NCBI GenBank assembly: GCA_963666975.2
Contig: CAXVYR010000003.1
Coordinates: forward strand, 64,001-128,000
DNA length: 64,000 nt
From: Terriglobia bacterium
GTDB taxonomy: Bacteria; Acidobacteriota; Terriglobia; 2-12-FULL-54-10
Direction of reading: 5' to 3'
The translations under genes and the position numbers were made by a program. Shown piece after piece: positions 31,703 through 32,824 of the stretch; position 1 is the stretch's first letter, and the number at the start of each line of letters is the position of its first letter. Below the pieces are notes generated by a model. It saw only the letters and a program-made list of their open reading frames with translations, had not been told where the DNA came from and searched no databases.

Positions 31703-32824
31703 ATGACGGAAGCCAGGAATCATGCGGGCGCGGGCGAGAAGGCGGGCTCTCCGTTGATTGAGTTAGCGGGACTGCACAAAGGATACGGCCCGGCTGTGAT
31801 GGCGCTGGAGAATGTCAGCTTCACGGTCGGTCGCGGCGAGTGGATCGCAGTAATGGGTCCGTCGGGCTCGGGCAAGACGACGTTGCTGAACATCATCGGG
31901 TGTCTCGACTCCCCGACCTCAGGCCGGGTGGTGATTGAAGGAGAAGACGTCAGCCATTTCAGCAAACGGGATTTGGCTAATTTTCGTGCGGAAAAAGTAG
32001 GATTTGTTTTCCAGCAGTTTCATCTGATCCCCTATCTGACGGCGCTGGAGAATGTCCTGATGGCGCAGTATTTCCACAGCATGACGGACAAGCAGGAAGC
32101 CTTGCAGGTGCTCGGCCGCGTGGGCCTGTCGCACCGCGCGCATCATCTTCCTTCCGAGCTTTCCGGCGGGGAGCAGCAACGGGTGGCCATTGCGCGTGCC
32201 CTGGTCAACCAGCCGGTCCTTCTGCTGGCCGATGAGCCGACGGGGAACCTCGATGCGGAAAATGAGGAGATCGTCATGGGGTTGTTTCGGGAGCTGCACG
32301 CCGAGGGGCACAGCATTGTCATGGTCACGCATGACCCCGTGATCGGTTGCATGGCCGACCGCCGCATCGAGCTGGAGCATGGCCGCATCTCGACGACCAC
32401 CACGTTTTCCTTTGAGGAAGAAACCGGTTTCGATGAGGTGCTCGAACAGATCTGGGTGATGAAGGAAGAAAAGATCGAGCCGCGCCCCGAACTGCTCCAA
32501 TTCAACGGAGGCGGCAATTGGAAGGTTCTGCCCGTCATGAAGGAGATCGGGTTATTGCGGTCCGACGGGCTTGCTTTGGAGATGACGGACCAGGGGCGGG
32601 AGCGCGCCGCCAGCATCATCCGGCGTCACCGGCTCGCCGAGCGGCTTTTCACCGATGCCTTCGACATGCGGGACGACCAGCAGTTGGAATCAAACGCCTG
32701 CACCTTCGAGCATATCCTGAGCCCGGAGGTCACCGAGCGCATATGCACCTTTCTGCATCATCCCGCCCACTGTCCTCACGGAAGTCCCATTCCGCCGGGG
32801 GAGTGCTGCCCCGGCAGTGGTTGA
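31703..32824 (+). CDS. ABC ATPase fused to a DtxR/MntR-type metal-binding/dimerisation domain
   Basis: [25 protein letters not shown]-terminal RRHRLAERLF..ACTFEHILS..CPHGSPIP. Confidence 0.88.
   Translation: MTEARNHAGAGEKAGSPLIELAGLHKGYGPAVMALENVSFTVGRGEWIAVMGPSGSGKTTLLNIIGCLDSPTSGRVVIEGEDVSHFSKRDLANFRAEKVGFVFQQFHLIPYLTALENVLMAQYFHSMTDKQEALQVLGRVGLSHRAHHLPSELSGGEQQRVAIARALVNQPVLLLADEPTGNLDAENEEIVMGLFRELHAEGHSIVMVTHDPVIGCMADRRIELEHGRISTTTTFSFEEETGFDEVLEQIWVMKEEKIEPRPELLQFNGGGNWKVLPVMKEIGLLRSDGLALEMTDQGRERAASIIRRHRLAERLFTDAFDMRDDQQLESNACTFEHILSPEVTERICTFLHHPAHCPHGSPIPPGECCPGSG

Follow-up and report, generated by a model that had tools for sequence, protein, structure and literature searches.

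A conserved ABC ATPase with a C-terminal DtxR-like module in an FTR1-linked operon of Acidobacteriota, and its possible role as a post-translational iron sensor

The window analysed here is a 64,000-nt stretch of DNA from a Terriglobia bacterium (assembly GCA_963666975.2, contig CAXVYR010000003.1, positions 64,001-128,000 of the forward strand). Four plus-strand genes cluster in this window, and the last of them encodes a 373-residue protein in which an ATP-binding cassette (ABC) ATPase is followed by a module resembling the metal-dependent regulators DtxR and IdeR. This fusion is a real, conserved and uncharacterised architecture, and can be seen as a variant both of the DtxR-family sensors and of the ABC ATPases that carry C-terminal regulatory domains. 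The genes of the cluster, and the parts of the last protein, are as follows (positions are those of the window).

27875..29140, + strand: FTR1-family iron permease fused to an FtrD-like/DUF2318 Cys-rich domain, 421 aa (PF03239, E 7.5e-33, residues 1-202; PF10080, E 4.8e-27, residues 319-417)
29147..30478, + strand: FtsX-type permease with a MacB-like periplasmic core domain, 443 aa (PF02687, E 2.4e-17; PF12704, E 4.5e-11)
30496..31701, + strand: second FtsX-type permease, 401 aa (PF02687, E 1.6e-14)
31703..32824, + strand: ABC ATPase fused to the DtxR-like module, 373 aa (ABC_tran, PF00005, residues 35-180, E 5.2e-37; Fe_dep_repr_C, PF02742, residues 295-364, E 2.4e-25)
31703..32401, + strand: ABC nucleotide-binding domain (NBD), residues 1-233 (PF00005; its last strand ends at residue 233 in the AlphaFold2 model)
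32402..32587, + strand: conserved junction FSFEE, acidic helix 1 (DEvLEqIW) and degenerate winged-helix-like segment, residues 234-295 (aligns to IdeR residues 13-63)
32588..32752, + strand: DtxR-type dimerisation/metal-binding helices with H309, E313, E329, C333, E336 and H337, residues 296-350 (PF02742; ligand conservation; Foldseek)
32753..32809, + strand: Cys/His-rich tail LxHPxxCPHGxPIPxGxCC with H353, C357, H359, C368 and C369, to which C348 is added (conservation in 26 fused and 49 free-standing relatives)

The preliminary description of this DNA had reported an intact ABC ATPase running in frame into a DtxR-like part, and the open reading frame (ORF) is exactly that, with Pfam matches to both ABC_tran and Fe_dep_repr_C (the latter at 88.8 bits against a cut-off of 27). 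A single base separates its ATG from the stop of the second FtsX permease gene. The catalytic motifs of an ABC ATPase are all present: Walker A, Q-loop, the signature LSGGEQQR, Walker B with the catalytic Glu, and H-loop. Across 76 fused homologues G52-K58/T60, S154/G156/E157/Q159, D177/E178 and H210 are invariant, and Q104/Q105 are conserved in at least 90%. The top NCBIfam models all score below their cut-offs (LolD, 217.6 vs 307.75; FtsE, 210.9 vs 264.85; MacB, 209.6 vs 966); by these scores the protein is a relative of LolD, FtsE and MacB that lies outside all three equivalogs. The EfeU/Ftr1 NCBIfam matches of the permease-DUF2318 protein likewise stay below cut-off. The ATPase belongs to a MacB/FtsX-type ABC module of the MacB/LolD/FtsE branch. 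The label "iron importer" given to it earlier is imprecise, the ATPase being part of a MacB/FtsX-type module that accompanies the FTR1 permease.

The C-terminal module clearly has the DtxR fold. Residues 226-373 align with solved IdeR and DtxR chains over IdeR residues ~13-134 (best E 4.3e-16). An AlphaFold2 model of residues 231-373, built on 75 sequences, reached a mean predicted local distance difference test (pLDDT) score of 94.8, and when compared by Foldseek it retrieved two-domain IdeR/DtxR structures at TM 0.76-0.79 over 127-137 columns, with E values down to 6e-9; the first 49 ranks were DtxR, IdeR or DR2539 without exception. In the predicted secondary structure, helix 1 (237-255) is followed by a 3-residue remnant of helix 2, a Gly-rich turn, a 7-residue helix (275-281), a beta-hairpin (285-294) and the three helices of the dimerisation/metal domain. 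Only ~3 residues lie between the last NBD strand and helix 1, and the FSFEE junction is conserved. The third, SH3-like or FeoA domain is missing, as neither PF04023 nor PF18357 matched in the 373-residue protein.

The metal ligands of DtxR, which we take to be M10, C102, E105 and H106 at one site and H79, E83 and H98 at the other, are largely retained. By the IdeR/DtxR alignment, H79, E83, C102, E105 and H106 correspond to H309, E313, C333, E336 and H337, identical residues in all five cases, while the H98 position is occupied by E329; that the His is not retained there had been read from the sequence at the outset. This residue is Glu in 88% of the fused and 87% of the free-standing relatives, and is a potential ligand. 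The M10 position extrapolates by register to E245; E245 and E248, one turn of helix 1 apart, presumably sit at the register of the acidic MntR ligands D8 and E11. In an alignment of 75 sequences (26 fused and 49 free-standing relatives), both groups show one and the same residue at each of E245, H309, E313, E329, C333, E336 and H337, with a frequency of at least 87%.

In addition to the DtxR ligands, the module carries a Cys4His2 motif (C348/H353/C357/H359/C368/C369), which is absent from the preliminary description. These six positions are invariant or at least 97% conserved in the 26 fused and 49 free-standing relatives, and with a column entropy of 0.65 (fused) and 0.9 (free-standing) they form the most conserved part of the module. 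The model has a pLDDT of 97 across residues 361-370 of this tail, and the protein ends 4 residues past C369. Two divergent fused forms (our loci L071, G266:C56, and L072, G365:C3) are informative: five of their eight canonical ligand positions (E245, E248, H309, E329 and H337) are changed, while E313, C333, E336 and all six tail positions are kept. Since the tail persists in these forms despite the changed canonical ligands, the Cys-rich site seems to matter at least as much as the classical DtxR sites.

Compared with the DtxR and IdeR structures (PDB 1fx7, 2isy, 7b24), the module therefore shares the fold of domains 1 and 2 and five ligand positions, and differs in its undetected helix-turn-helix (HTH), vestigial helix 2, absent SH3/FeoA domain, Glu at the H98 and M10 positions, Cys4His2 tail and fusion to an ATPase. 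MntR likewise has acidic helix-1 ligands, presumably in the same register, and a two-domain form that lacks SH3; however, it has Glu where the module keeps the Cys of DtxR (C333), and it binds DNA by a canonical HTH.

The HTH had been called degenerate, and several observations agree with this. No HTH family, PF01325 included, matched the module even at E <= 1, and PF01325 was detected at E <= 0.01 in none of the 75 aligned clade members. As a control, the free-standing DtxR paralogue of the same genome (contig C4, 234 aa) matched PF01325 at 32.4 bits as well as several other HTH models; it was the sole match in a six-frame PF01325 search of this genome. Column entropy peaks in the helix 2-turn-helix 3 segment (2.0 bits, against ~0.8 for the metal domain of the fused forms), and the stretch from W251 to R307 varies from 54 to 73 residues among fused forms, with indels of up to 19 residues. 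The proposal that a Gly-rich FNGGGNW replaces the recognition-helix region is partly right: this motif spans from the last part of helix 2 through the turn into the beginning of helix 3, but the prediction retains helix 275-281 and the beta-hairpin wing.

Among eleven own-family orthologues the HTH-equivalent segment has an average pairwise identity of 0.50, compared with 0.70-0.81 in the remaining parts, and the nonsynonymous rate (dN) of the segment is 2-3 times that of neighbouring parts in most pairs. Its ratio to the synonymous rate (dN/dS) is nevertheless 0.09-0.56, so that the segment appears to be a relaxed but still selected fold rather than decaying sequence. Over the whole 60-residue domain the median net charge is -8, compared with -1 in 29 canonical PF01325 domains of the phylum (locus L080, from genome G049, was left out of this comparison). 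Canonical DNA recognition of the DtxR type is thus unlikely for this module.

We surveyed the fusion on several scales. Of 3537 matches in a search of 5.8 billion proteins, 118 of the best 120 carry both ABC_tran and Fe_dep_repr_C, and the source names of the protein matches point to Acidobacteria, Terriglobia and Bryobacteraceae. In the ESM Atlas at least 12 clusters of 50 or more members have both domains, with Acidobacteriota the commonest phylum. A Promethearchaeota cluster also appears in the Atlas, at rank 13; its 392-aa ABC proteins have a feature similarity of 0.98, are annotated with ABC_tran only and have ~150 further C-terminal residues.

Our sample of the phylum consisted of 401 genomes, the own genome and 400 others, and 13 other genomes of the own family were examined; one genome, G049, is included in the tallies of free-standing coordinates, of FtrD-like domains and of the PF01325 genome search, but none of the individual claims depends on it. 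Among the 29 best loci in the phylum sample, 21 have the DtxR-like and ABC parts in one open frame, seven are free-standing and one is cut by a contig end. With five further genomes and the two divergent forms, the fusion is found in 28 of the 400 other genomes; in the own family 11 of 13 have it, ten as a whole gene and one truncated at the end of a contig. A pattern search of the genome contigs for the C-terminal part, using patterns from variable stretches, returned only locus L001, which is 95% identical. In every one of the 19 loci with enough upstream sequence, and also in L001, the gene order is FTR1, FtrD-like, FtsX, FtsX and the ATPase fused to the DtxR-like module. A lost stop codon or an assembly chimera was considered as the source of the fusion, and is ruled out by its in-frame occurrence across the 28 and 11 genomes. 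The two parts as separate genes in orthologues, which had been named as the pattern that would speak for such an accident, were not seen: lineages have either the fusion or no module at all.

The lineages without the module are equally instructive. FtrD-like domains occur in 59 of the 401 genomes. Eight loci have the same type of operon with an ATPase that ends 11-25 residues past the NBD, and no DtxR-like sequence was found downstream of it in the stretch fetched. Six of these are from a sister genus of the same class (all six fetched) and two from other families. The sister-genus loci (L058-L063; genus g7, family f3) all show an FTR1-FtrD-like fusion, two FtsX genes and an ATPase with the short tail FCHPV... 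Three more loci have a simpler arrangement of FtrD-like, FtsX and ATPase genes, again without the module; L070 is differently arranged and its ATPase ends 6 residues past the NBD; and four FtrD-like loci were too short or too differently organised to judge. Because orthologous sister-genus operons lack it entirely, the DtxR-like module is evidently an accessory to the operon.

The closest known counterpart is the Campylobacter jejuni cluster of fetM (FTR1), fetA (DUF2318) and fetBCD (two permeases and an ATPase, FetD being Cj1663) (PMC10783030; PMC6083913). There, each of fetA-D is required for growth under iron limitation (PMC10783030; PMC6083913). The shared content of FetMP-FetABCDEF/P19-cFtr1 systems and the present cluster (FTR1, DUF2318, two FtsX permeases and an ABC ATPase) suggests that the operon is a P19-less acidobacterial counterpart of FetM/FetA/FetBCD. 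The two differ in several respects. The acidobacterial operon fuses FTR1 with DUF2318; P19/FetP (PF10634) is unmatched in the own genome, which is 98.88% complete; and no thioredoxin like FetE or FetF directly follows the ATPase, thioredoxins elsewhere in the genome not having been searched for. For C. jejuni FetD no DtxR-like extension is described, and neither "DtxR" nor Acidobacteria is mentioned in the main texts of PMC10783030 and PMC6083913.

Extra domains behind an ABC ATPase are well known in other systems. MetN (its C2 domain), ModC, MalK and FbpC each have a domain behind the NBD that dimerises under the NBD pair; that of MetN and ModC binds the transported solute and thereby inhibits the ATPase. 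FbpC is described as an ABC importer ATPase with a C-terminal regulatory domain (PMC2896483). The trans-inhibition by ModC and MetN had been offered as a model for the DtxR-like module, and the analogy holds for position and proposed functional logic only: those domains have a TOBE/ACT-like fold and serve type I importers, whereas here the fold is that of DtxR, the module is of the MacB/FtsX type, and the sensed ion would enter through the partner permease FTR1. The preliminary description knew of no characterised example; in agreement with this, a literature search on DtxR, on Fe_dep_repr_C with ABC_tran and on trans-inhibition yielded no paper on this architecture, and DtxR does not appear in the portions consulted of PMC10783030, PMC6083913 and PMC8749426.

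Relatives of the module also occur as free-standing proteins. They are 43-51% identical to the fused module, with which they have the helix-1 motif, the ligands and the Cys4His2 tail in common, and they contain FeoA as an extra domain (in 45 of the 49 free-standing rows of the 75-sequence alignment). All seven that were tested matched PF02742 and PF04023, with no PF01325 match above cut-off, and their would-be recognition helix is Glu-rich. In 8 of 10 genomes the free-standing gene lies directly downstream of feoB on the same strand, and in the other two the genes are on different contigs. This adjacency ties the clade to iron transporters. Free-standing forms occur at loci L008, L017, L021, L029 and L031-L033, and in genomes G012, G234, G264, G361, G102, G060, G030 and G056. 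The feoB-linked proteins thus have the same helix-1 motif, ligands, tail and link to an iron transporter as the fused form, but are free-standing and carry FeoA. Our literature search found no description of free-standing DtxR-like-FeoA proteins; FeoA is reported to occur sometimes with an extra domain (PMC8749426). Two proteins among the more distant matches, P0196 and P0265, have unusual compositions, namely transketolase domains with a DtxR-like part and FeoA, and a DtxR-like part with FeoA and FMN_bind; these are perhaps gene-calling fusions. A domain tree (93 rows, 127 columns; a quick method with one long outgroup, some "standalone" rows being chosen by length only) left 43 of 90 forks open, and the fused and free-standing labels cluster on it, with 4 changes against ~29 in shuffles.

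The transcription of the operon appears to be controlled by other means. Two features lie ahead of the first gene.

27677..27706, + strand: sigma-70-like promoter TTGACA-18-GATAAT (11/12 consensus matches; consensus match only)
27712..27726, no strand: 15-nt palindrome TGCAAGTCATTTGCA, just past the -10 hexamer, a candidate Fur-family operator (sequence reading and script)

An inverted-repeat search (seed 6) of 27440-27900 gave nothing; the palindrome, with its 5-nt arms, was found by eye and by script. We take its shape (7-1-7-like with an A/T-rich centre) to resemble Fur-family boxes and not the DtxR/IdeR box. Among 20 related loci, TTGMAA-N5-TTKCAA palindromes lie upstream of the FTR1 gene in L001, L034, L036, L037, L038, L040 and L044, and variants in L035 and L041. 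The own genome contains 20 matches to the pattern, where ~7.9 are expected from base composition. One copy, TGCAAATGAGTTGCA at G000:C4:552705-552719, is found 87 nt ahead of the genome's sole FUR-family gene (C4:552792-553286); this suggests that Fur regulates itself and that its box has the pattern TGMAA-N5-TTKCA. Genome-wide, the matches that are both clearly intergenic and iron-related are those at the operon and at the FUR gene; three other ORFs next to a palindrome have no Pfam family, PaaA_PaaC and a GMC oxidoreductase, respectively.

These two clear sites, together with the conservation across species, lead us to infer that a Fur-type repressor controls transcription of the operon. Such control would leave the fused module free for another task. 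The region 27677-27729 had been described as an operator, and it does contain a promoter with an overlapping palindrome; that palindrome is, however, Fur-like and recurs upstream of the FUR gene, pointing to a separate regulator. Rfam gave no match at E <= 0.1 on 25500-34000, so the ~150-nt leader holds no known riboswitch. A terminator-like hairpin, GTCTCGG-TTGGT-CCGAGAT with TTTCATTATG behind it, does lie in the leader, after the promoter and ahead of the FTR1 start (27798-27816, + strand). Terminator-like hairpins in the operon are not above chance, with 10 found vs 6.6 +/- 3.0 in shuffles.

The earlier interpretation of the module as a metal sensor that no longer binds DNA is partly supported. 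We propose that the fused module is a cytoplasmic sensor of Fe(II) or of an Fe-S cluster that acts post-translationally on the ATPase, a reading to which we attach about even weight. In this view the protein is the ATPase subunit of a MacB/FtsX-type module that works with the FTR1-DUF2318 permease. Its C-terminal 140 residues consist of a winged-helix-like remnant, a dimerisation/metal-binding domain and the Cys4His2 tail specific to the clade; the SH3/FeoA domain has been shed, and so, most likely, has the ability to bind DNA. The NBD dimer would contain two copies of the module, whose ligand would be Fe(II) of the cytoplasm, perhaps Mn(II), or else an Fe-S cluster held at the Cys-rich site. 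By locking in response to metal, the module could then alter ATPase activity through the short conserved FSFEE junction. The result would be a fast post-translational feedback, most plausibly inhibition at iron sufficiency, with transcription of the operon left to the separate Fur-type repressor.

What the analysis shows is the architecture and its conservation, the retained ligands, an HTH that is variable and escapes detection, and the accessory nature of the module; that the module binds metal, which metal or cluster it would hold, and how and in which direction it would act on the ATPase are inferred. Several points weigh against this proposal. Judging from the two divergent fused forms, the classical DtxR sites may be dispensable. 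The predicted structure still contains a winged-helix-like fold, which is under purifying selection, meaning that this segment keeps some function and might yet bind DNA, and the net charge of the HTH plus wing is near that of canonical domains (median 0 vs +1; p = 0.018, the sequences being kin and not independent). The full-length model has a predicted TM (pTM) score of 0.62, which makes the inter-domain geometry uncertain; a homodimer prediction for the full-length protein (2 copies; score 0.22, mark 0.42) counts neither for nor against the proposal. The domain tree gives neither a single origin of the fused form nor a direction, such as fused from feoB-linked forms. Finally, the biochemical role of FetBCD itself is described as unknown (PMC10783030), which leaves the benefit of regulating such a module a matter of conjecture.

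The strongest competing explanation places the weight on the thiolates. In this account C333, C348, C357, C368 and C369, with H353/H359, would, if they converge in space, form an Fe-S cluster or redox-sensitive thiolate sensor that reports Fe-S or redox status to the transporter, the DtxR sites being secondary. A comparison is offered by FeoC, whose cluster is thought to act on FeoB. The tail is what recommends this account: its six positions outdo all others of the module in conservation, both divergent fused forms keep it, and model confidence stays high up to C369. The partner DUF2318 is moreover Cys-rich and is discussed as cluster-binding or redox-active (PMC6083913; PMC10783030). A structural Zn site would, however, yield equal conservation, and the canonical ligands are kept in nearly all other members. 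We regard a thiolate sensor of this kind as unlikely, even as the best placed of the competitors.

A non-regulatory role is rather less likely again. The module might serve as a clamp for NBD dimerisation, held by structural Zn, or as a cytoplasmic acceptor that passes on Fe(II) from FTR1, in either case with no tuning of the ATPase. It is true that domain 2 of DtxR is a dimerisation domain by its Pfam description, that surfaces rich in His, Cys and Glu suit metal hand-off, and that the module is dispensable in sister lineages; but the full set of regulatory-site ligands and the rigid conserved junction exceed what a clamp needs, and no hand-off partner was identified. That the protein is a membrane-tethered repressor, acting in an iron-dependent way on its own or other promoters through an operator still recognised by the divergent winged helix, is improbable: although the predicted topology superposes on IdeR/DtxR-DNA complexes (127-137 columns), the segment is under purifying selection and a palindrome overlaps the operon promoter, the HTH models and PF01325 fail throughout as described above, helix 2 is cut to 3 residues before a Gly-rich turn, the segment tolerates the 19-residue indels among fused forms, the 60-residue domain has its strongly acidic median charge, the ~3-residue link holds the N-terminus of the module to the NBD, and the palindrome is Fur-like, stands also before the FUR gene and is present whatever the HTH-like sequence.

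Returning to the sensor that acts on the ATPase, a wider version of the proposal can be put forward, tentatively and with clearly less assurance. The DExLExxW helix, a non-canonical acidic winged helix and the Cys4His2 tail mark out a clade of DtxR-family modules, and this clade as a whole might have given up DNA binding and turned into a plug-in sensor for iron or Fe-S through which iron transporters are regulated post-translationally, either by fusion to the FTR1-associated ATPase or, as the DtxR-like-FeoA protein, by acting on FeoB. Iron uptake is usually seen as throttled at transcription by Fur or DtxR. To our knowledge, fast allosteric shut-off has been established for a few ABC importers, those of methionine and molybdate, and not for iron. 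If the proposal is true, a direct metal-feedback device would be described for the first time in either uptake route (the FTR1-associated ABC module or Feo), and the DtxR module in a transporter ATPase would be a natural experiment in how the sensor of a transcription factor can be turned into an allosteric switch. The function of the FetBCD-type ABC module, the companion of FTR1/P19 systems, those of pathogens included, would become easier to approach as well. Feo may be a target of the same sensor, as the feoB-linked relatives suggest, so that the interest is wider than one gene; the regulation of Feo is poorly understood.

Several observations concern the surroundings of the operon. The divergent neighbour upstream is listed below.

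26530..27462, - strand: thioredoxin-reductase-like gene (Pyr_redox_2, E 3e-48)

No TrxB-like match was found in the 20 related loci, each covered over ~2.5 kb upstream. On the other side, the gene next downstream of the ATPase gene is Oxidored_q6/NuoB-like by Pfam. Further upstream, at 26194-26500 (+ strand), lies an apparently frameshifted gene, presumably DUF59/SufT-like from its motif: frame 0 reads MPTVDEVYAALRQCIDPELPVSIVDLGLIYEVKVENDTV, and the typical continuation KVTMTLTGAGCP...VVWEPRWSP...LGVKE (stop) is in frame +1. This is either a sequencing error or a broken gene, and the frame-0 ORF, which reaches 27210 and overlaps trxB on the other strand, is probably spurious. Positions 36001-38000 have a G+C content of 0.536, against ~0.60 around them, and contain ORFs of 224 aa (37287-37961, - strand) and 67 aa (36930-37133, - strand), the latter of which we take, from its motif, to look like a GIY-YIG nuclease.

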